This document shows, one piece after another, positions 2 through 63,267 of a stretch of DNA of 64,000 nucleotides (positions are counted from its first letter, which is position 1; each line of letters opens with the position of its first letter). The notes under the pieces were generated by a model. It had not been told where the DNA came from. It saw nothing but the letters and a program-made list of their open reading frames with translations, and made no database searches. The stretch is from Escherichia phage vB_Ec-M-J, in the sequence record OQ718158.1. One strand, 5' to 3'. Position numbers and translations under genes: made by a program.

Positions 2-280
2 GTGTTTGAGATTTCTGCTACGGCCTCTAAAACTGGTACTAAAGGTATCATCTATAATATCTTTATGGATATGGTTTCTCATGGTATTAAAGTACTAAGT
101 GACAGTCTTCACACAGATGATGCAATTAAATTCTGGACCCGATTGATTGGTTCACACCAAGTCTACATTGTGGGTGGTGGTGAAGTATTGGCTAAGGCTA
201 GTCCAGAGAAGGTTCACAAGTACTGGAGTGATGATGAATTTAGTCCTAGTGCTGAATTACAATTACTTCTGGTAAAATAA
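2..280 (+). CDS. 3' end of a gene entering from upstream (92 codons); product unknown
   Basis: Open frame from window edge to TAA at 278-280, followed by terminator. Confidence 0.5.
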   Translation: MFEISATASKTGTKGIIYNIFMDMVSHGIKVLSDSLHTDDAIKFWTRLIGSHQVYIVGGGEVLAKASPEKVHKYWSDDEFSPSAELQLLLVK

Positions 281-2394: not shown

Positions 2395-3807
2395 ATGGCT
2401 AAAAGTAAAAAAACCGAAAATCAAAGCATCGATAACCAAACACTAACTCTACTAGATTATAACAGTTCTGATTATGTGAATACCACATCACTAGAATATT
2501 CAATGTACACACTAGACCGTGCAATCCCTGGGATTGATGGCCTTAAGAGTTCACAGCGTAAAGCAATCTTCACCCTCTCAAAAGTTAGTGGTGAAATCAA
2601 AACTGTATCATGTGCTGGTAAAATGATTAGTGATGGTATCTATCTACACGGTGATACATCTGCATCTGGTACTCTTCAGAACCTAGCATCACCAGTCGTA
2701 AACAACTACCCACTCATTGGTAAACGTGGTGGTTTTGGTACACAAGTAAACAGTACTCCAGCTTCTGCTCGTTATACTTATGTTAAAAAGAATAAAAGTA
2801 CTGAAATGTTAGTACTACGTGACTCTGACATTATTCCAATGAAAGAGAACTATGATGGTACTACAATGGAACCAAGTTTCTTTTTACCTATTATCCCACT
2901 ATCTTTGTTTGGTAACGATAGTATGTCAGTAGGTTATAAGAGTACAATTCTACCACATAAGATTGAAGATGTTATTGATAACTGTATTCGTGCTATTGAT
3001 AAAAAACCATTAAAAGAAATGACTCCATACTATGTTTCATGTGGTGCAAGTGATATAGTAACTAAGCTTGATGAAAACAAATATGAGTTCTATGGTAAAG
3101 CACAAGTAATTGATGCAAGTACTGTTAAAGTAACAGGTCTACCACCTAACTACAGTATTGAGAAATTCATCGAGAAACTCATTAAGATGAGCGATGATGG
3201 TGATATTCGTGATTATGATAATGATAGTACTGATGTTATTGATATTACAATCAAATTACCACGCGGAACATCTGCTAAATGGGTGGAGAAAGATGTAATT
3301 GAATACTTTGGCATTCATAAGAAGATGACACAAATCCTAACTGTTCTAGGTGAGAATGGTAAGGTTAAAGTCTATGATAACACAATGGATTTGATTAAGG
3401 ACTTTGTTGAATTCCGTTTCAAATACTATGTGAAACGCTATGAGAAGAAACTTGATGATTGTGCTGCTGAAGTACGTTATAAGATTCTAATCAAAGAATG
3501 TTTTGATAATGATATGATTGCTAAGGTTAAGGGTTTTGCTAACCGTTCAGAAATGGTTGAGTTTGTTAAATCATTAAACACTGAAATCGAAGCAACCGAT
3601 GAGAATATTCAAAGCATCGTAAACTTCCCATCATATCGTTGGACCCAAGACAATTATCAATCAGTACTAGCTGATATTCAACATAACTTGGATTTAATGG
3701 ATGAATATAACAATCTCCTGTCGAATCATGATTTGATTTGGAACATCTATAAAGATGAGTTGAAAGAACTACGTAAGATTGACTTCACGCCAAAAACTGA
3801 AGATTGA
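2395..3807 (+). CDS. 52: DNA topoisomerase II medium subunit (GyrA-like breakage-reunion), T4 gp52-like, 470 aa
   Basis: N-terminal YSMYTLDRAIPGIDGLKSSQRKAIF resembles the GyrA N-terminal signature; directly downstream of the ATPase/Toprim subunit. Confidence 0.85.
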   Translation: MAKSKKTENQSIDNQTLTLLDYNSSDYVNTTSLEYSMYTLDRAIPGIDGLKSSQRKAIFTLSKVSGEIKTVSCAGKMISDGIYLHGDTSASGTLQNLASPVVNNYPLIGKRGGFGTQVNSTPASARYTYVKKNKSTEMLVLRDSDIIPMKENYDGTTMEPSFFLPIIPLSLFGNDSMSVGYKSTILPHKIEDVIDNCIRAIDKKPLKEMTPYYVSCGASDIVTKLDENKYEFYGKAQVIDASTVKVTGLPPNYSIEKFIEKLIKMSDDGDIRDYDNDSTDVIDITIKLPRGTSAKWVEKDVIEYFGIHKKMTQILTVLGENGKVKVYDNTMDLIKDFVEFRFKYYVKRYEKKLDDCAAEVRYKILIKECFDNDMIAKVKGFANRSEMVEFVKSLNTEIEATDENIQSIVNFPSYRWTQDNYQSVLADIQHNLDLMDEYNNLLSNHDLIWNIYKDELKELRKIDFTPKTED

Positions 3808-3817
3808 TTATAAACAG

Positions 3818-3848
3818 GGAAGACCTTTATGGGTCTTCCTTGTCCTTT
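3818..3848 (+). terminator. probable terminator hairpin
   Basis: ggaagacc / ggtcttcc stem, U-rich tail interrupted. Confidence 0.45.
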
Positions 3849-3849
3849 A

Positions 3850-3857
3850 TATAAATA
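3850..3857 (+). promoter_or_regulatory. T4-type late-promoter-like box TATAAATA
   Basis: Exact TATAAATA about 40 nt upstream of the 798-aa ORF start; no -35 element. Confidence 0.4.
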
Positions 3858-3895
3858 ATCTATAGATAATGGTAGCTTGGCTATGGAGAATTATA

Positions 3896-6292
3896 ATGAC
3901 AACTTTTACCCCTAGATGGGATATAAAAGCCGATGCTCGATATATACAAGAAGGACAAGACATTCTTGTGCGTTTGAGTATCAACAAAGAAACCACAACG
4001 GATGATAGTTATATACTTAATGAAAACGAATACTTAGAGATGATTCTAACTATTCAGGGTTTGGACAGTTCTGATGCAGTATTTCAACCAGAAGATCACT
4101 ACGCAGTGTATGTTGGTAATGATGAATCTAATCTCACACCTATATCATCAGGTATTACTGGTAACAAGTTGATTAATGGTAAGCACAAATGTAAAATTGA
4201 TAAAACTCAATTTGATCTATCGGCAAGCACTAATACCGAAGATGTTTATTTTATTAAATTGCATTGTAAAGATGATGGTACATTTAACAACTCTGAACAG
4301 ATTAACTTCTATCTTCAAGCAGTAAATGTTATGTACTATGGTAACATTTCCCCTAGTGGTGAAATTGGTTCAAATGAAGTAACAATTGAATATGATAGTC
4401 AGGAAGTGTGGGTTACTCCTGGAATCGAAATCGGTGATGATGACAAATTATATTGTATTGGTGATATTGAATACGGTTCCAACAGTACTTTATTTGTACA
4501 GGGATTTGGTCGTCGTCGTCCATTTATTTTAGGAACTGATACATCAACTGACCTATCTCCTAGAGTATTTTATCCAGCGTATCGTCTACTCGATATGACC
4601 CCAGCAGAAGTTCCTGTACGCCACATCACTGATGATTATGCAATCCTACGTCCTATTGATAATATATGGCCTGTATTTGGTATTAATAAAGAAATTAAGG
4701 TTAATATTCAAACTAGCTCTGGAGAGTTACTAGATTCAGGATTGGTTTTCAACCCAAATGGACAATTTCTGCAAACATTCCTATATGACTCTGATGCATG
4801 TGATGCATATTTCAAAGTTGAAATTGTTGATATTTTGAGTACATATAGTTATGACACTGACCGCTTCGCTATAAACCAACGTTTCAAAGCATATCAAATG
4901 TGGGTATGTCCAGACAATGTAGATGGTATATACGCTGATGGTGATAAACCTTTACCTAATCATTTGTATCAGTTGAAAGATAACGTTGTATATCCATATG
5001 TAATCTCTGGTGAATATGATCTAGGTGAAACAAAGCCAGTGTTTAAAAGTTCAGATTGGATTGATTTAGGATATTATGATTCAAGCTTAGGTGAGAATAT
5101 TATAGGTGAAGAGAAGATGTTCCGTGTTCTAGTGAACGCAGAAGAAGGAAACTCAATAGACTTCACAACTGATAGTGATTTAGGTAGTATTCATGTGGGT
5201 GAATATTTCGGTCACAGTACTTATCCACAAATACAAACTACCAGTACTAATCAGGTATCTTATGTATTAGATGGTGGACCTGATGATATTCGCAAATATG
5301 GTTTGGACCTCACCGCAGATGGGTTCTTGGTCGGGACGGCATATGCAAAAAGTTTAGATTTCAGTGCAAATGATGATATAAATTTAGAATTCAACATCAA
5401 AGCATATGACACTGAAGGTGGTGTTGCGTCCAAGTTATTTAAACTTAAAATTGTACGTGGTTTTGGACAAAACTACTTAAGTGCACATATTGTACCTTCT
5501 GTTTATTTTGAACGTGAATGGTTTAAGTGTATTAGTACACCATCATTTACAAATCAAGCTTTCCATCGCCAATCAGATGATAGATACGGGTTACAAAAAG
5601 TACCACGTATTTTATTAAAAGAAAACTTTTTGAGTCAGAACTATACTTACACTACGTTGAGTGATATTAAAAAAGTACTTAGGGAAAATATCATAAACCA
5701 AACTGGTGCAACTATACCTGATGGAAAATTTAGAATGGTAATGGGCAACTATAAAGTAATGTCAGCACTTGACAACCAAGGTAACTTGCAGTATGATATA
5801 TTATACCGTGAAGTTTTACCAGCAGGTTCATTGGTGTCAGTTTCTAAGAATCCAAGAAGTTACACGCAAATTGATAACGGAACACTCGGTGAAATATTTG
5901 GCTTGCGTCAAAATATTTTTGCAGCAATTGGCGAAGACACAACTAACCTTGTGAAAGACCCAACTGATTTACAGAACCGTGGTTTGTATGTAGATGCTAT
6001 ACCTGGAATTTCTGATGAGATGCTAGATACTGTTCCTCGCTTCATGAATCACCCATACGAAGAAGATGGAGTTAAAAAGAAATTCATGCCAATCATTCCA
6101 GTTGCATACTGTGCACCAGGAAAGGGTGAAGCATTCTTTAACACTTTACTTCAGAACAATGAACATGGTAAGATGGTTGGTGTTGAGTTTGAAATCACAG
6201 GAGTTGAATTTGGATTCTTTGCACATGAATTCGAAAACTACGTTCATGATACATTTTTGATTTCATTACAAAACAGCAATTTAGGAGGATGA
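3896..6292 (+). CDS. large hypothetical protein (798 aa), possibly a late/virion protein
   Basis: Long ORF; start moved to ATG 3896 (GGAG 8 nt upstream); late-type box upstream; no catalytic motif recognised. Confidence 0.8.
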   Translation: MTTFTPRWDIKADARYIQEGQDILVRLSINKETTTDDSYILNENEYLEMILTIQGLDSSDAVFQPEDHYAVYVGNDESNLTPISSGITGNKLINGKHKCKIDKTQFDLSASTNTEDVYFIKLHCKDDGTFNNSEQINFYLQAVNVMYYGNISPSGEIGSNEVTIEYDSQEVWVTPGIEIGDDDKLYCIGDIEYGSNSTLFVQGFGRRRPFILGTDTSTDLSPRVFYPAYRLLDMTPAEVPVRHITDDYAILRPIDNIWPVFGINKEIKVNIQTSSGELLDSGLVFNPNGQFLQTFLYDSDACDAYFKVEIVDILSTYSYDTDRFAINQRFKAYQMWVCPDNVDGIYADGDKPLPNHLYQLKDNVVYPYVISGEYDLGETKPVFKSSDWIDLGYYDSSLGENIIGEEKMFRVLVNAEEGNSIDFTTDSDLGSIHVGEYFGHSTYPQIQTTSTNQVSYVLDGGPDDIRKYGLDLTADGFLVGTAYAKSLDFSANDDINLEFNIKAYDTEGGVASKLFKLKIVRGFGQNYLSAHIVPSVYFEREWFKCISTPSFTNQAFHRQSDDRYGLQKVPRILLKENFLSQNYTYTTLSDIKKVLRENIINQTGATIPDGKFRMVMGNYKVMSALDNQGNLQYDILYREVLPAGSLVSVSKNPRSYTQIDNGTLGEIFGLRQNIFAAIGEDTTNLVKDPTDLQNRGLYVDAIPGISDEMLDTVPRFMNHPYEEDGVKKKFMPIIPVAYCAPGKGEAFFNTLLQNNEHGKMVGVEFEITGVEFGFFAHEFENYVHDTFLISLQNSNLGG

Positions 6293-6293
6293 T

Positions 6294-6605
6294 ATGTTCA
6301 ATCCATTTTTTGATCCATCAACCATGACCGAGAAAGAGTTACAATTGAAAATTAACGAACAATCGATGCGTATTACGTCTGCTCGTGCAGCAGGTATGAG
6401 TGATATGATTGTTGGTAACATGCAAACCGTTCTGAATCAGTGCTATGCTGAATTAGAGATTCGTCAGGGACAAAAAGAAAAAACCTCCTATGATGAGCAA
6501 GACCCATGTATATTTGACATGAACTCTTACTTAACGGATAACGAAGAGGATCAGAAGAAGAAAAATGAAAGTACAAGGAAACAGATTTATAAGTCCCAAT
6601 GGTGA
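6294..6605 (+). CDS. hypothetical protein (103 aa)
   Basis: ATG preceded by aggagga; starts 2 nt after upstream stop. Confidence 0.6.
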   Translation: MFNPFFDPSTMTEKELQLKINEQSMRITSARAAGMSDMIVGNMQTVLNQCYAELEIRQGQKEKTSYDEQDPCIFDMNSYLTDNEEDQKKKNESTRKQIYKSQW

Positions 6606-7083
6606 TGTAAAATGTAACCTTAATGCAGTCGTGTATGCAATCAACTGTGGTGCAGATATTCAGTACTTACAGCTACAGGAGATTGACGAACCGGAACGAT
6701 TGAAATTTAACGATAATTGTAAAAAATTTGGTTTAGAACAGCGTATGCTGGATTATACAATAGAACATGATAAAAACCATGAGCTATGGCGTTATGATCC
6801 AGTGTACGATAACATCAACTTGCGTGAGTACTTTTTACAGAAATGTACATCGGATGAAGCCCGTGAACGTGTAATGTATGAGATTGATTTGTTTGAACAT
6901 TACAACATGACTAAGCTTTTAAGATGTATGATCTGGTTAGTTGATTATATGGAAGAGCACAATATTTTTTGGGGTCTTGGGCGTGGTAGTTCAGTGGCTT
7001 CGTATTGTTTGTTCCTGATTGATTTGCATATGGTTGATTCTTTGAAGTATAAACTAGATGTAAATGAATTTTTGAAATGGTAG
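6565..7083 (+). CDS. hypothetical protein (172 aa) with a C-terminal GRGSSVAS...IDL...EFL segment reminiscent of a Pol III alpha (DnaE) motif
   Basis: ORF overlaps upstream gene by 41 nt; motif resemblance is by eye only. Confidence 0.5.
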   Translation: MKVQGNRFISPNGDVKCNLNAVVYAINCGADIQYLQLQEIDEPERLKFNDNCKKFGLEQRMLDYTIEHDKNHELWRYDPVYDNINLREYFLQKCTSDEARERVMYEIDLFEHYNMTKLLRCMIWLVDYMEEHNIFWGLGRGSSVASYCLFLIDLHMVDSLKYKLDVNEFLKW

Positions 7084-7146
7084 AAAAACATGTGATATAA
7101 TGTTGTTTGAGGCGTTATATCACTCACATAGAAAAAGGATTTTTAT

Positions 7147-7821: not shown

Positions 7822-7877
7822 AACATAAATCTAAAGCTCGGATATATTATCTGGGCTTTTTATTTGGATGAAAATAC

Positions 7878-8173: not shown

Positions 8174-9127
8174 ATGACTACATTATGGACTGAAAAATAC
8201 CGCCCACAAACTATGGAAGATTATGTATCGAAGAACGAAGCCCTACGTCAGAAGATGGAAGAATGGATTCGTACTGGTGATATCCCACATATTGGATTTT
8301 TTGGACCAGCAGGGACAGGTAAAACTTCAGCAATCAAAGTACTACTGAATGGTCTGGAAGCTAACGGACACCTTGACCCTAGTGATGTAACAACACTGAA
8401 TATGTCAGATGAAGGTATCGATGCTGTTCGTGACAAAATTGATGCAGCAGCAAAACTATCATGTTTTGGTCGTTATCGTGTATTTGTTCTGGAAGAAATG
8501 GAACAAATGAACCACAAAGCACAGGGTAGCTTGAAACGTGTCATGGAAGATTACCATGAAAATGCTCGTTTCATTCTTACCAGTAATGAACCACATAAGA
8601 TTCAGAAACCTATTATCTCTCGTGTCCAGGTCATCACCATTGAGAAGCATGATATGGAACAATTCATGTCACGCATCTACAACGTACTATTGGCAGAAGG
8701 AGTAGATCTAAGCACTGATGAAAGTATTGAACAAGTACAAAAATACATCAATGCTTCATATCCTGATTTCCGCAAAACGCTAAACGTATTGCAAAGTTCA
8801 GTAGTCGATGGTAAACTTGTAAAACTTGAAGACAGTATTGAGAACTCTGCTGGGTATCGTACTGCCATTGTTGATGCACTAAAAGCTGGTAACATTCGTC
8901 AAATGCGTGAGCAGATCGTGCAAAACATTCCTGATGATGAGATGGATGCATTCTTCTCTTATCTGTATCGTAATGCAGAAATGTTCAGTACTGATGAAAT
9001 TACTCTAATGAAAATTAAGGTTAAGATTCGTGACGCTGTTGTTAAACAAGCTACCGTGTCTGACCGTGAAATGAATCTCAGTGCATTACTGTGTGAGATT
9101 GACCTAATCTGTTCGGGGAACATGTAA
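8174..9127 (+). CDS. 44: sliding-clamp loader large subunit (AAA+ RFC-like), T4 gp44 homologue, 317 aa
   Basis: EKYRPQTMEDYV N-terminus, Walker A GPAGTGKTS, Walker B FVLEEME, SRVQVITI and YPDFRKTLNVLQ match gp44 signature blocks. Confidence 0.9.
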   Translation: MTTLWTEKYRPQTMEDYVSKNEALRQKMEEWIRTGDIPHIGFFGPAGTGKTSAIKVLLNGLEANGHLDPSDVTTLNMSDEGIDAVRDKIDAAAKLSCFGRYRVFVLEEMEQMNHKAQGSLKRVMEDYHENARFILTSNEPHKIQKPIISRVQVITIEKHDMEQFMSRIYNVLLAEGVDLSTDESIEQVQKYINASYPDFRKTLNVLQSSVVDGKLVKLEDSIENSAGYRTAIVDALKAGNIRQMREQIVQNIPDDEMDAFFSYLYRNAEMFSTDEITLMKIKVKIRDAVVKQATVSDREMNLSALLCEIDLICSGNM

Positions 9128-9768: not shown

Positions 9769-9791
9769 GGGGATTATTTAATCCCCTTTTA
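9769..9791 (+). terminator. Rho-independent terminator
   Basis: ggggat...atcccc hairpin followed by tttt. Confidence 0.7.
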
Positions 9792-9852
9792 TTGTTTTTT
9801 AAAAGTAGTAAATAGTATTATATGTGCTAGTTTTTTAAGGATAATATAAAAC

Positions 9853-10419
9853 ATGGATGATTTAGATTATACAGATAATGCAGTCCAGCAGTTGTATGAT
9901 AACAGCGGTATGCTAGATATACTTCTGGCTGTTGAAAAATATTTTGATGATAATGATTTGTACGCATATCATGGTATCATCGAAGGTGAACTCGTTGAAG
10001 GTCCGATTGTTAGTAAGTACTGGTGTACTGTGACATTCAAATACTATCGTGAGAATTTCCCTGATCCTACTGCATTCTCAATTCTTGAGAAGCACGGGAC
10101 TAAGGTATATGTGAAAGCAGATTATGAAATTACACCTATTCAAGAACCTAACCGTCAGGCTGATATGAAGAGTGTTGCAACGCAATCTGGTTCTGTTCGT
10201 ATTCCGAAAAATGAACGAATTCCAGTTCTATTGGTTCGTGTACAAATTCCTAGAAACCTAATCAACCCTGAAAGTTTTGATGAATACAAACTAATGGCTT
10301 CCGAGTTCAATAGTAATCCTATGAATGCACAAGAACCATCAGATGAACCAATTACTGGTGAAGATGTTGATTTAGATGTAGAAGTATCTGATGATGTACA
10401 ACAAGGTGGTATGCAATGA
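9853..10419 (+). CDS. hypothetical protein with acidic C-terminus (188 aa)
   Basis: ORF; C-terminal EPSDEPITGEDVDLDVEVSDD. Confidence 0.7.
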   Translation: MDDLDYTDNAVQQLYDNSGMLDILLAVEKYFDDNDLYAYHGIIEGELVEGPIVSKYWCTVTFKYYRENFPDPTAFSILEKHGTKVYVKADYEITPIQEPNRQADMKSVATQSGSVRIPKNERIPVLLVRVQIPRNLINPESFDEYKLMASEFNSNPMNAQEPSDEPITGEDVDLDVEVSDDVQQGGMQ

Positions 10420-11096
10420 AAAAGAAACTAAATGAACAAGGTTTACGTCCACAAGTACTAAAGGATTTGATTCATCCTATTATTAGTGTAGATGAATATA
10501 CTCCTAAGATTGAAGATAGTAATATCGTTGTTATGTTTCAAGTACTAAACAACTTTGATGCTGCATATGACCTGTCATCTTTTATTGAGAAGTCACCAAT
10601 TGATGCAGTTGATACGGAAGCTGCTGAAACACCTAATCTGGATGGTCGTTATCAGGTATTCGTTGAAATGGAACGTGATGCGGAATTTCCAGAAAACCTA
10701 CTTCGTCTTATCAAAACTATTGAAAACATTTGCCCAAATCCTGGCTGGAAGATTCAGCTTTATGGTGTGAATGATCCGATTGATGTTGATTTTGATGAAA
10801 TTCAACAACGTATCGATTTGGGTATTCCTAAATCCATCAGTGAATTTTTAGACTTTGCTGGTGTATCTGTTGTTAAAGAAGGTCACATGCTTGCATTAAA
10901 CACTGCATATGGTAAACTACATTACAGTACTGGTAGTGGCTTTGTGTCAGAAGCATACGTAAAACAGCTTCTATCGAACGATACGCAGGTAGATACATCT
11001 CGTTTAAGTTCGGTACTAGGTGAAAGTTATAGCGTCCTACGAAGCGGCAATCAGTATGTAGTAGGCAAAGATGGGAAGTATTTGGTGTTACGATGA
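10416..11096 (+). CDS. hypothetical protein (226 aa)
   Basis: ATGA-coupled ORF; size similar to a sliding clamp but no convincing similarity seen by eye. Confidence 0.7.
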   Translation: MKKKLNEQGLRPQVLKDLIHPIISVDEYTPKIEDSNIVVMFQVLNNFDAAYDLSSFIEKSPIDAVDTEAAETPNLDGRYQVFVEMERDAEFPENLLRLIKTIENICPNPGWKIQLYGVNDPIDVDFDEIQQRIDLGIPKSISEFLDFAGVSVVKEGHMLALNTAYGKLHYSTGSGFVSEAYVKQLLSNDTQVDTSRLSSVLGESYSVLRSGNQYVVGKDGKYLVLR

Positions 11097-38766: not shown

Positions 38767-38894
38767 TCAGGTCGATTAGTTAAAAGAGTATAACACGGAC
38801 CTTGTAAGTCTGAATAATCAGTGCAATTCTGATATTGACCTCAAAAATGATATTTTTCTTACATATAAATACTCCATAATATATGGAGAACTAT

Positions 38895-39290
38895 ATGAAA
38901 GAAAAACGTTATTGTACATGTTGTAAAATTGAATTGGTTCGAAAGGGCCAAACAAAATATTGTAGTGTTGCATGTCAACAAGAGCTACAATATCAACAGA
39001 AAGTTGATAAATGGCTTAACGGTGAACATCCTGGATATAAAGGTATTACCATACAGTTATGTCCATTTGTGAGAAGATATCTACATGAAACACGCGGAAC
39101 TGCATGTGAAGAATGTGGATGGGATAAACGTCATCCAATAGATGGTGCAGTACTGACAGAAGTTGAGCACATTGATGGTGATGCTACAAATAATGACCTA
39201 CCAAATTTAAAAATCCTTTGCCCTAATTGTCATTCGATGACACCAACATTCAGAGCAAGGAACAAGAACTCCGCAAGGAATCGTAAATAA
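38895..39290 (+). CDS. HNH homing-type endonuclease (131 aa)
   Basis: N-terminal Cys-rich zinc ribbon; HNH core EVEHIDGDATNNDLPNLKILCPNCH; ATG 38895 with SD ggag. Confidence 0.8.
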   Translation: MKEKRYCTCCKIELVRKGQTKYCSVACQQELQYQQKVDKWLNGEHPGYKGITIQLCPFVRRYLHETRGTACEECGWDKRHPIDGAVLTEVEHIDGDATNNDLPNLKILCPNCHSMTPTFRARNKNSARNRK

Positions 39291-43439: not shown

Positions 43440-44255
43440 ATGAGCAACATTTTCTTCAAAACCATTTCCTTCAAAAAAGAATCTTACTCTTACGCTTATG
43501 TAGATGGTAAAGTACTCAATATCGTTCTAGATGGTGTTGATGTGCCTGTTCAATTTACCAGTCATCAAGAAGCGATTGAGGGTGCTCAAGAGCTTAACAG
43601 CTTACTAAATGGTATTGAGAAGAAACCTGAAGTTAAATCTGACCTTGATTTATTGGTTGACAAAATTAAAAGTGGTGAACTATTATCAATTCTAGACCAG
43701 TGTAATGAAAAATTACGTGGTGTTGTTGGTGATGTACGTACTACAGTTCAAGATCGTCTACTTGAGCAAGCATTCAAAGAAGTTACTAAGAAAACTGAAG
43801 AACGTGTTGAAGGTATGATTAAAAACATTGATGACGTTCTCACTCATATGTTCACCAAGCCATACGAATCAAGTACTGATTCTGAAGAGAAACAAGAAGA
43901 ACCAGTAGAACGCACCAAGCCATCTATTGTTACTAAAGTTAAACATAGTTTTGGTTCACTGGATGATGTATTTGGCTTTACAAATGTACGTGTTAGTACT
44001 GATGAAAAACCAGAAGTTGATGAAATGCTAATTGGTGACATGACAACTGGACAACTCAAAAAAGAGATTGATACCTTTGTTAATGAACTAATTAGTTCTG
44101 AACGTGCTGAAAATATGTTTAGCAGTATTTCAGCAAACTTCGGTAAAGAAGCAACTGAGCAAGCAGTACAGGCATTCAAAGATTTGATTTACACTGTTGC
44201 AATTGCTAATCCAGAACAAACACTGGAAGAAGTTCTACGTAAAAACTTCAAATAA
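43440..44255 (+). CDS. hypothetical acidic protein (271 aa)
   Basis: ATG with SD aaggag. Confidence 0.7.
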   Translation: MSNIFFKTISFKKESYSYAYVDGKVLNIVLDGVDVPVQFTSHQEAIEGAQELNSLLNGIEKKPEVKSDLDLLVDKIKSGELLSILDQCNEKLRGVVGDVRTTVQDRLLEQAFKEVTKKTEERVEGMIKNIDDVLTHMFTKPYESSTDSEEKQEEPVERTKPSIVTKVKHSFGSLDDVFGFTNVRVSTDEKPEVDEMLIGDMTTGQLKKEIDTFVNELISSERAENMFSSISANFGKEATEQAVQAFKDLIYTVAIANPEQTLEEVLRKNFK

Positions 44256-44299: not shown

Positions 44300-45457
44300 T
44301 TATGCGTTATAACCAACAATGACTACAGTACAGCCAAATGGTTCAACAACTTTTAATACAACATTATCATCTGCATCGAGTTCAACTTCACTTAGAACAA
44401 CATGATTGTCTTCAGCATATACTTGAACTTGTGGGAGGATTTTACCATGTTCACTGACAGGAATGGACAGTGTGTACATAGAATCACCATCAACTACCCA
44501 ATCACTATCGGTATACGTGTTGTGATATGGAGTGGTGTGTAAGGTTTTACCAATAATACTCAATGAGATTGGAGCGTCATCAGTTTGGTACACAGTAATA
44601 TTACCGCTAGGATCTACAATGAGGTCTACTCCAATTTGGAATAAATCACCACTGTATGCTTGTAGAGCAAGATACTCACCACGCTCATGCACAGTAGCTG
44701 GTACAGTTGCCATGTACATACCATCGGACGTGTACTCAAACTGAGATAGAAGTACTGAAGTAACGAAGTCAATATCTTCGCCGCTTTCTAGTATATCAAA
44801 TTCAATAGTTTTGGTATTATATATGTCAGAAGTGAGTATGATGGTTCCTTTACCGGATTGAGTAATTGGATCAACTGGAATACTAAAAACATCATCAATT
44901 ATTTCAGTTGTGAAGTACTCGGTTCCGTCAGGAAGTATAACGGTAATACGCATTCCAGTTGTATCAATGGCTGAACCTGCGTTGAATAGGCGACCACCTA
45001 CCAAATCATCACCTACGAACGTTGGGAACATAAGGATGTTGTCTATATCTCTATCTATAATCCCGCATTCAGGGGTGTACATATTATATAGTGTTTGTGA
45101 ACTACCTAGAATTGTTTTGTGCAAAAGAAACTTATAAACAAACCCAGTAGGATCTGATTCAAGTTTAGCATCTGAGTATCCTCTTACGAAAAAAGAGTTC
45201 TTTCTTATTTCACTTAGGATTTGGTCATTAGTTTTGTTGTAGTTTAATTGATATCCTTGTATATCCTTTGTTGTAATTTGTACTTTACGATAAATTACAT
45301 TACTTACAGGATCAAGTAAATCATATAATCTATGGCTTCTCTGACGATAGATTCGAACATTTTTGAGTTTAGTCCCATCGTTGAGAATTGCACCATCGAC
45401 TACATATCCACATTCACCGAACTTATATCGTCCAGCAGCAGCAATCGATCTTGACAT
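44300..45457 (-). CDS. hypothetical protein (385 aa), only clear minus-strand gene
   Basis: Long ORF; SD ggaggg 5 nt upstream of ATG on minus strand; late-box-like AATAAATA upstream; function not recognisable. Confidence 0.8.
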   Translation of the reverse strand: MSRSIAAAGRYKFGECGYVVDGAILNDGTKLKNVRIYRQRSHRLYDLLDPVSNVIYRKVQITTKDIQGYQLNYNKTNDQILSEIRKNSFFVRGYSDAKLESDPTGFVYKFLLHKTILGSSQTLYNMYTPECGIIDRDIDNILMFPTFVGDDLVGGRLFNAGSAIDTTGMRITVILPDGTEYFTTEIIDDVFSIPVDPITQSGKGTIILTSDIYNTKTIEFDILESGEDIDFVTSVLLSQFEYTSDGMYMATVPATVHERGEYLALQAYSGDLFQIGVDLIVDPSGNITVYQTDDAPISLSIIGKTLHTTPYHNTYTDSDWVVDGDSMYTLSIPVSEHGKILPQVQVYAEDNHVVLSEVELDADDNVVLKVVEPFGCTVVIVGYNA

Positions 45458-45517
45458 TCATCCCTCCATTGGTATAATTATTATAACGTATTTATTCTAG
45501 ATAGGTAAAAAAGCACC

Positions 45518-62772: not shown

Positions 62773-62883
62773 TTTGACTTTGGAACAACCATTTCATATG
62801 TGATATAATCTTAAGTGTCTGTTGAAATAAACAGCACATGAAGTATAAATATTAAAGTAATTTATCTCTTTAAGGAGTATGAA

Positions 62884-63267
62884 ATGGTTGATAAATGGAA
62901 TAAGAAAGATCCATCGCATGATGTGGATATTTCTGGAATTGATAATGCACATAAGCATAAGTATCTTGATTCACTAGGTCTACTAAAGCCTGACCAAAGT
63001 CTTGCACATGATCGTCCTTCACGCGAAAAAGCTTTCAGTTTAGAATCACTAGGCCATGAATTGAATCGTGTATTTGAAGATCATCCAATTTATGTACGTG
63101 ATATCATTGAGAAACTTAAAGTGACTCCTAAAGAGCACTTCAAGGCAACAGTACACGCAGCATTCCGTGCACTACATGAAGCACTAAAGAAAACTCATAA
63201 CCTTCGTAAGATTCATGATGATATCGTGAACTCTATTGAAGGCGAAAAACATAAGTTTAAAAAATAA
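62884..63267 (+). CDS. hypothetical basic protein (127 aa)
   Basis: ATG with SD aaggag. Confidence 0.65.
   Translation: MVDKWNKKDPSHDVDISGIDNAHKHKYLDSLGLLKPDQSLAHDRPSREKAFSLESLGHELNRVFEDHPIYVRDIIEKLKVTPKEHFKATVHAAFRALHEALKKTHNLRKIHDDIVNSIEGEKHKFKK

Follow-up and report, generated by a model that had tools for sequence, protein, structure and literature searches.

Late promoters of the T4 type have been described in the group of large tailed phages to which CBB and GAP32 belong, since an ATAAATA late promoter motif was predicted at 35 sites before structural genes in these two phages, and a gp55-like sigma factor was noted in the same work (PMC5259590). In another such phage, phAPEC6, the authors remarked that the virion genes are scattered along the genome (PMC7247149, legend of Figure 2). 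We describe here a gene for a 798-amino acid (aa) protein and the promoter-like box in front of it, both of which lie in a 64,000-nucleotide stretch of the DNA of Escherichia phage vB_Ec-M-J (record OQ718158.1, one strand, 5' to 3'); this whole stretch is called the window below, and positions are counted from its first nucleotide. The first 12 kb of the window is 99.4% identical in DNA sequence to phages EC.P1 and fEgEco12 and 82% identical to 121Q and PBECO4, all of which are jumbo myoviruses of 350–385 kb in Asteriusvirus and its close kin, and by this sequence comparison the window is that of an Asteriusvirus-like jumbo coliphage. We consider it probable that the 798-aa protein is a minor virion protein of this phage, expressed from its own T4-type late promoter and built of an Ig-like N-terminal part and a C-terminal module that has the fold of the 2H phosphoesterases but not their histidines.

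Results

The 798-aa gene and its orthologues

The longest frame at this locus, which is also the biggest open reading frame (ORF) of the window, runs from 3869 to 6292 and could code for 807 aa; counted from the ATG at 3896 the product is 798 aa (coding sequence 3896..6292, + strand). A Shine-Dalgarno sequence, GGAGA at 3885-3889 (+), can be read in the sequence 6 nucleotides (nt) before the latter start codon, position 3896 corresponds to the annotated start in fEgEco12, 121Q, RaK2, CBB and phAPEC6, and an alignment of 51 homologues shows conservation of M1, F4, P6 and W8 at the N-terminus. A start at ATG 3869 was rejected, since it has no Shine-Dalgarno sequence and would be about 5 nt away from where the transcript is predicted to begin, and since the relatives and the conservation of the N-terminus favour 3896.

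The protein matches phrog_13911 over its full length with E = 0 (residues 1-797 on profile positions 1-788 of 789), and tblastn finds full-length homologues in 71 phage records at identities of 45–99.9%. It is 99.9% identical to g420 of fEgEco12, which is annotated as 'virion structural protein'. Its orthologues in better studied phages are phAPEC6 gp158c (80% identity), 121Q gp54 (80%), RaK2 gp160 (55%), GAP32_321 (46.5%) and CBB_326 (45%), and nothing of substance distinguishes the window protein from these. The Eneladusvirus orthologues (BF_0324 of Serratia phage BF, L005 4001-7030, and those of the Erwinia pEa_SNUABM phages, P0045) are 1009 aa long; about 215 aa are inserted in frame in them, near residue 244 in the numbering of the window protein. 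This segment has no match in Pfam and is probably an extra beta-sandwich domain; an intein or intron was also considered for it.

The promoter box and the hairpin before it

A preliminary description of the window, made from its letters, had reported an exact late promoter octamer about 40 nt upstream of the Shine-Dalgarno sequence and ATG of the largest ORF, with no -35 element, and both observations hold. The octamer TATAAATA, an exact match to the T4-type late promoter -10 element, occupies 3850-3857 (+), and its end lies 38 nt before ATG 3896 and 27 nt before GGAGA. A scan for sigma-70 promoters (at least 9 of 12 matches) finds no promoter-like site on the + strand between 3400 and 4100, and none of the hexamers 16–18 nt 5' of the box (tttatg, ttatgg and tatggg) has four or more of six matches to TTGACA. 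By analogy with T4, transcription is predicted to start near 3863-3866. Between the upstream genes and the box, a terminator scan finds an intrinsic terminator hairpin at 3814..3843 (+), with a 13-bp stem that includes 6 GC pairs; its RNA fold has an energy of -21.7 kcal/mol (z = -4.8), and none of 200 shuffled sequences folds equally well. This hairpin closes the topoisomerase II operon upstream and insulates the 798-aa gene. Both elements recur in relatives. The box is identical in 121Q and reads CATAAATA in CBB, AATAAATA in Serratia phage BF and AGTAAATA in RaK2, the last three of which retain an ATAAATA or TAAATA core, and a hairpin of differing sequence followed by a T-run stands at the same place in RaK2, CBB and Serratia phage BF.

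The box belongs to a class of sites tied to virion genes

An octamer of this composition might be met by chance in so long a stretch of DNA. In the window TATAAATA is found at 3 sites against 9.7 ± 3.0 expected, and so is about three-fold under-represented, a depletion that selection against stray late promoters could explain. All three lie in intergenic spacers directly 5' of ORFs and on the coding strand, and the non-coding strand has none; with a non-coding share of about 9% (from crude gene calls), the random chance that three of three sites fall between genes is about 0.09 cubed, or roughly 7e-4. Thus, it is the placement of the box and not the count that argues against chance. Of the shorter motif ATAAATA the window has 10 copies on the + strand and a single one on the - strand.

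The same motifs were located in a 150-kb sample of the phAPEC6 genome (record positions 50,001-200,000), a phage with both an annotation and a virion proteome. There, 8 of the 11 exact TATAAATA sites lie 16–56 nt 5' of annotated starts on the correct strand; the genes in question are gp158c, gp225c (major head protein), gp226c (scaffold), gp238 (virion protein), gp232, gp234 (EndoVII), gp242 and gp214c, and when genes are counted by the orientation of an upstream TATAAATA, 7 have it in sense and none in antisense. ATAAATA (38 sites on both strands) lies 8–80 nt 5' of 25 genes in sense versus 5 in antisense, where the upstream windows make up about 5% of strand positions. Its targets include the protease gene gp227c, gp231c and the portal gene in one operon, the baseplate wedge gene gp244, the gene for the 382-kDa gp245, and gp253, gp210, gp205c, gp192c and gp167c; all of these are represented in the phAPEC6 virion proteome, and each is the first gene after its box, the portal gene excepted. 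A sigma factor that could read such sites is present in the group. The phAPEC6 protein gp237c, annotated as a late sigma factor, matches phrog_234 'late sigma transcription factor' (8.4e-18) and, in a tblastn comparison, cyanophage gp55, and its orthologue in EC.P1, the closest relative of the window, is 95.7% identical (the sigma gene does not lie inside the window).

Given the placement of the box, its link to virion genes in phAPEC6, the conserved spacer, the published motif of CBB and GAP32 and the gp55-type sigma factor, the box at 3850-3857 belongs to a real, strand-specific, promoter-like class that is tied to virion genes. The earlier reading of it as a T4-type late promoter, as far as sequence comparison can tell, is well supported by the association of the motif with virion genes, the ATAAATA motif of CBB and GAP32 and the gp55-family sigma factor of the relatives. 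The likeness to T4 extends to the exact consensus octamer, the lack of a -35 element, a leader of about 30–45 nt, positions 5' of head, scaffold, baseplate and other virion genes, and the presence of a gp55-family sigma factor in the phage group. There are also differences, in that the sigma factor of this group is, at 279 aa, longer than T4 gp55 and matches the gp55 type only over its C-terminal half, many late genes here use the shorter ATAAATA or TAAATA core, and the promoters of this group are predicted ones.

Orthologues are found in virions

The preliminary description had also guessed that the product, in which it saw no enzymatic motif, might be a virion or host-interaction protein expressed late, and its presence in virions is borne out by homologues in the purified virions of three phages, phAPEC6, RaK2 and GAP32. 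In phAPEC6, gp158c (90.30 kDa) was identified by 9 unique peptides at 17.1% coverage in electrospray tandem mass spectrometry (ESI-MS/MS) of CsCl-purified virions (PMC7247149 Table 1), and RaK2 gp160 (87.7 kDa) by 6 peptides at 8.1% coverage in virions (PMC3622015 Table S3); the row CBB_326 / GAP32_321 / RaK2 ORF160 of the CBB paper is positive by mass spectrometry for GAP32 and RaK2 (PMC5259590 S5). The peptide counts of these homologues suggest that the 798-aa protein is a minor component of the virion. The cryo-electron microscopy maps of phAPEC6 carry no assignment to this protein (PMC7247149), and the protein family is not mentioned in the paper on the Alcyoneusvirus adsorption complex.

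A predicted Ig-like N-terminal part and a predicted 2H-fold C-terminal module

The full protein matches no Pfam family at E <= 0.01, and neither a sequence search of the PDB with the protein nor a profile search with the domain alignment gives anything significant, so that no homologue was found among the solved structures of that database. An AlphaFold2 model built from 51 homologues has a mean predicted local distance difference test score (pLDDT) of 88.1 and a predicted TM-score (pTM) of 0.50, and its individual domains are predicted with confidence. In this model the N-terminal part (residues 1-519; 3896..5452, +) is nearly all beta-strand and appears to be made of Ig-like, cohesin-like or Calx-beta-like sandwiches, the last of which, at about residues 405-519, can be aligned with the He_PIG Ig domains that distant relatives carry. 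The remainder of the protein, a conserved C-terminal module (residues 520-798; 5453..6289, +), is predicted to have a 2H-phosphoesterase fold of the LigT/CPDase/Usb1 kind without the two HxT/S motifs of those enzymes. A separate model of residues 520-798 (pLDDT 76.9, pTM 0.79) was compared by Foldseek with the PDB; the first 30 matches are all 2H enzymes, the best being 1jh6 with an E value of 2e-5 and a target-normalised TM-score of 0.67. Since this model of the module alone gave 2H matches too, the fold assignment rests on two models and two methods, and in these models residues 520-798 form a two-lobed 2H fold.

The catalytic signature of that fold is missing. Among the 51 homologues residues 520-798 contain no column with a conserved His followed by Ser/Thr at +2, and His stays below 30% in every column when 33 distant copies of the domain are aligned. 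Mapping of secondary structure onto LigT indicates that the strands expected to carry the two 2H motifs would read LLKEN (573-577) and PVAY (735-738). The residues that are conserved family-wide are R558, D561, G565, A624, D626, G629, Y633, Y637, P714, Y738, P741 and G742, which read as a structural core and not as an active site. Because the fold is present and the catalytic motifs are absent, we do not class the protein as a 2H enzyme; judged from the models, the module is probably non-catalytic. Compared with the 2H superfamily (LigT, plant CPDase, Usb1, the central domain of AKAP18 and phage Acb1), it lacks both HxT/S motifs, is about 100 residues larger through insertions, has no sequence-profile similarity and sits behind Ig-like domains in a virion protein. 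A Foldseek search of viral models (BFVD) returned the protein's own family and generic Ig-rich proteins only, which is uninformative for function, and nothing specific was found in the literature on virion proteins with a 2H fold. The statement of the preliminary description that the protein has no recognisable enzymatic motif thus stands at the level of sequence, where Pfam finds none, and needs correction at the level of fold, where the structure prediction and fold search that it had proposed point to Ig-like domains followed by an enzyme-like fold without the catalytic histidines.

The family beyond the close orthologues

When 1.8 billion representative proteins were searched with a profile, 79 relatives emerged. 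In the distant ones the similarity is confined to residues ~390-780; these proteins have He_PIG Ig domains, in one case together with CBM_5_12. According to a hidden Markov model of the domain, about 65 of the relatives have the 520-798 module at their C-terminus. By sequence, the family pattern is one of a variable, Ig-rich N-terminal part joined to a constant C-terminal module. A second large protein search with the C-domain profile found 26 metagenomic 'hypothetical proteins' and no names, and searching PHROGs with distant relatives gave the same family only. On metagenome contig Ga0480417_0006201 (L014 440-4900) the family is split in two adjacent genes, one for a 1149-aa He_PIG/Big_3_5/YHYH protein and one for a 335-aa C-domain protein, followed by the DnaE fragment and Cpn10 genes that adjoin the family elsewhere; this split supports the view that the protein consists of two modules. 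In another metagenomic phage a C-domain protein adjoins a gene like T4 gp9/gp10 of the baseplate and an S8 peptidase gene, and in yet another a 1001-aa member stands directly before a gene for a 2826-aa giant protein. The family pattern would fit, by analogy, a surface-displayed accessory protein that is held on the particle, or oligomerised, via its C-terminus.

The Hoc protein of T4 is attached to the capsid via its C-terminal domain. The predicted architecture of the 798-aa protein appears to resemble that of Hoc and other Ig-domain phage surface proteins, which likewise have tandem Ig-like domains followed by a distinct C-terminal domain and are non-abundant virion proteins; it is different from Hoc in that there is no sequence or fold match, the window protein is twice the size and a distant member of its family has a baseplate-type neighbourhood. 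By this analogy the 798-aa protein is probably an accessory virion protein, as are the Hoc-like surface proteins.

Neighbouring genes and the downstream transcription unit

The genes for the large and medium subunits of topoisomerase II lie directly 5' of the 798-aa gene, the medium-subunit gene ending at 3807. To its 3' side follow in order a 103-aa ORF, a gene for a 172-aa DnaE fragment, a GroES-like gene and the clamp loader gene (8174..9127). The order of the two topoisomerase II genes, the 798-aa orthologue, small ORF, DnaE fragment and GroES-like gene is common to the full-length orthologues. RaK2 has a homing endonuclease gene (ORF158, L003 796-2505) inserted between the topoisomerase II subunit genes, an insertion that the window, 121Q and CBB do not have. 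The phAPEC6 protein gp159c, a topoisomerase II small subunit that is orthologous to the product of window positions 2395-3807, was detected in virions by 2 peptides at 8.1% coverage, as either a contaminant or a packaged enzyme. The DnaE fragment gene (6565-7083, +) matches Pfam DNA_pol3_alpha at positions 15-95 of 260; this 172-aa piece of DNA polymerase III alpha is conserved with a small gene of its own in all relatives, among them the Vibrio phage and metagenomic phage that carry distant family members.

The 103-aa ORF (6294..6605, +; phrog_15348) appears to be expressed together with the 798-aa gene. The stop codon TGA of the latter (6290-6292) lies just 3' of AGGAGG and 1 nt before ATG 6294, an arrangement that indicates translational coupling of the two, and the 103-aa ORF is conserved 3' of the gene in 121Q, RaK2, CBB, Serratia phage BF and phAPEC6 and is probably co-transcribed with it. 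It overlaps the DnaE fragment gene by 41 nt. The next terminator-like site that the scan finds on the + strand is at 7833-7859, past the GroES-like gene, so the late transcript may extend over the small ORF, the DnaE fragment gene and the co-chaperonin gene as well. Earlier expression of the distal genes could come from a strong sigma-70-like site at 7072-7101.

Other late-type boxes in the window

The region had been described as otherwise of early type. This is correct for the immediate neighbours of the 798-aa gene, which are replication genes, but the window also contains other virion-protein genes with the same kind of box. Two overlapping ones (9853..10419 and 10416..11096, +) are orthologues of phAPEC6 gp150c and gp149c, both positive by mass spectrometry. 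Upstream of them stand a terminator hairpin (9769-9786), AGTAAATA (9807-9814, +) and a further 38 nt leading to ATG 9853, the same layout as at the 798-aa gene. The only large gene on the minus strand of the window, 44300..45457 (-), is a virion-protein gene whose product is 76% identical to phAPEC6 gp077, found in virions by 10 peptides; the window's single minus-strand copy of ATAAATA (45489-45495, -) lies 31 nt 5' of it and is kept in phAPEC6. A third example is the gene for a 127-aa protein at 62884..63267 (+), which matches phrog_16530 'virion structural protein' at 7.7e-55. Here an exact TATAAATA at 62844-62851 (+) lies 32 nt 5' of the gene, and as TTGAAA is found 16 nt 5' of the box, this site could double as a sigma-70 promoter. 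Two further virion-protein genes are the orthologue of 121Q gp51, the end of which lies at 2..280, and a gene at 43440..44255. The remaining exact TATAAATA (38864-38871, +) precedes an ORF for an HNH endonuclease (38895-39290, +), which may be a homing endonuclease under late control.

Discussion

The explanation that we favour for the 798-aa gene, a late-expressed minor virion protein, can be put together as follows. Read-through from the topoisomerase II genes would be halted by the intrinsic terminator at 3814-3843, and the gene would be transcribed late from its own TATAAATA promoter, without a -35 element, by host RNA polymerase carrying the phage gp55-family sigma factor; the transcript would probably run on into the coupled 103-aa ORF and further in the direction of the GroES-like gene. 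The late timing is deduced from the promoter class. In the particle, the variable Ig-like part may be displayed on the surface in the manner of Hoc-like decoration or adhesion proteins, while the histidine-less C-terminal module may serve as a non-catalytic attachment or oligomerisation module.

Several points weigh against this explanation. CBB_326 is undetected in CBB virions, its table entry being blank (PMC5259590 S5), and the virion list of phAPEC6 also holds topoisomerase II small subunit, SSB, a RecA-like protein and thymidylate synthase (PMC7247149), so that, with such plainly non-structural proteins among those detected, a structural role does not follow from mass spectrometry alone. 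The synteny of the family with replication genes is tightly conserved, even in a Vibrio jumbo phage whose homologue is only 23% identical and which keeps the order topoisomerase II B, A, homologue, DnaE fragment and Cpn10. On the side of transcription, no homologues of the co-activator gp33 and the sliding clamp gp45 were reported for CBB (PMC5259590), so that late promoters here may be activated differently from those of T4; the literature on Asteriusvirus and on the RaK2-like phages that carry the gene yielded no RNA sequencing, primer-extension or transcript-timing data, and the genome paper of fEgEco12 has no promoter or proteome data. Finally, the mutual arrangement of the domains in the full-length model is unreliable at its pTM of 0.50, and we infer, and do not observe, both the role of the C-terminal module and the location of the protein in the virion.

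Some of these points would be explained if the protein were non-structural, working with the replication and topoisomerase module and turning up in virion preparations either as a contaminant or, being associated with DNA, through passive packaging. The synteny with the topoisomerase II subunit, DnaE fragment and clamp loader genes, which persists from Asteriusvirus to the Vibrio phage and metagenomic phages, is as such an idea would predict, as are the presence of the neighbouring topoisomerase II small subunit, SSB and RecA-like protein in the phAPEC6 list and the lack of detection in CBB virions. We nevertheless think it unlikely, since the protein was detected independently in three phages by 6–9 peptides, its gene has a terminator-insulated promoter of its own with the late consensus that is common to head and baseplate genes, its Ig-like/He_PIG architecture and its CBM_5_12-fused relatives are typical of surface-exposed proteins, and distant members adjoin a baseplate-like gene in one case and precede that of the 2826-aa giant protein in another. 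The box itself could be mistaken for an extended sigma-70 -10 element, in which case the gene would share early or middle expression with the replication genes around it; TATAAA agrees with TATAAT at 5 of 6 positions, the neighbours are of replication type, and one of the other two exact boxes, that at 62844, is the one with TTGAAA 16 nt upstream. At the 798-aa gene, however, there is no -35-like hexamer at 16–18 nt, no TG extension and no site in the scan, and the octamer is depleted genome-wide and restricted to sites 5' of virion genes, unlike a generic -10 element, which makes a sigma-70 promoter here very improbable.

The fold of the C-terminal module raises the further idea that it is an active 2H phosphoesterase, carried in the virion and acting at or just after infection, for instance as a degrader of cyclic-oligonucleotide immune signals like Acb1 or as an RNA 2',3'-cyclic phosphodiesterase. 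Beyond the fold itself little agrees with catalysis. Both HxT/S motifs are absent from the 51 close homologues and the 33 distant domains, K575 is not retained in distant members, the residues conserved family-wide are mostly G, P, Y and A, and there is no match to a Pfam 2H family nor any sequence or profile match in the PDB; we regard an active enzyme as highly unlikely. A domain without histidines might still bind nucleotide or cyclic-phosphate ligands, and the particle would then bring a sponge or sensor into the infection, but the odds of this seem small to us.

Part of what is reported here was already known: a 99.9% identical protein had been deposited as 'virion structural protein', orthologues had been found in three virion proteomes and the promoter class had been described, so that the finding mainly confirms an existing annotation. 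What is new is the quantitative evidence that ties the box to virion genes in Asteriusvirus, and the first fold-level description of the protein, with the histidine-less 2H-fold module as the core of the family. Late genes in these 350-kb genomes lie as small scattered islands, each insulated by a terminator and provided with its own promoter, inside regions of replication or early type, and in such genomes virion genes can be predicted from the TATAAATA or ATAAATA box, as two further examples in the window illustrate. For the previously undescribed family of the 798-aa protein, the domains described here would represent an enzyme fold that, without its catalytic residues, has been re-used in a virus particle, and it may be that the 2H fold has in this way become a previously unrecognised class of virion-attachment module common to many large myoviruses.

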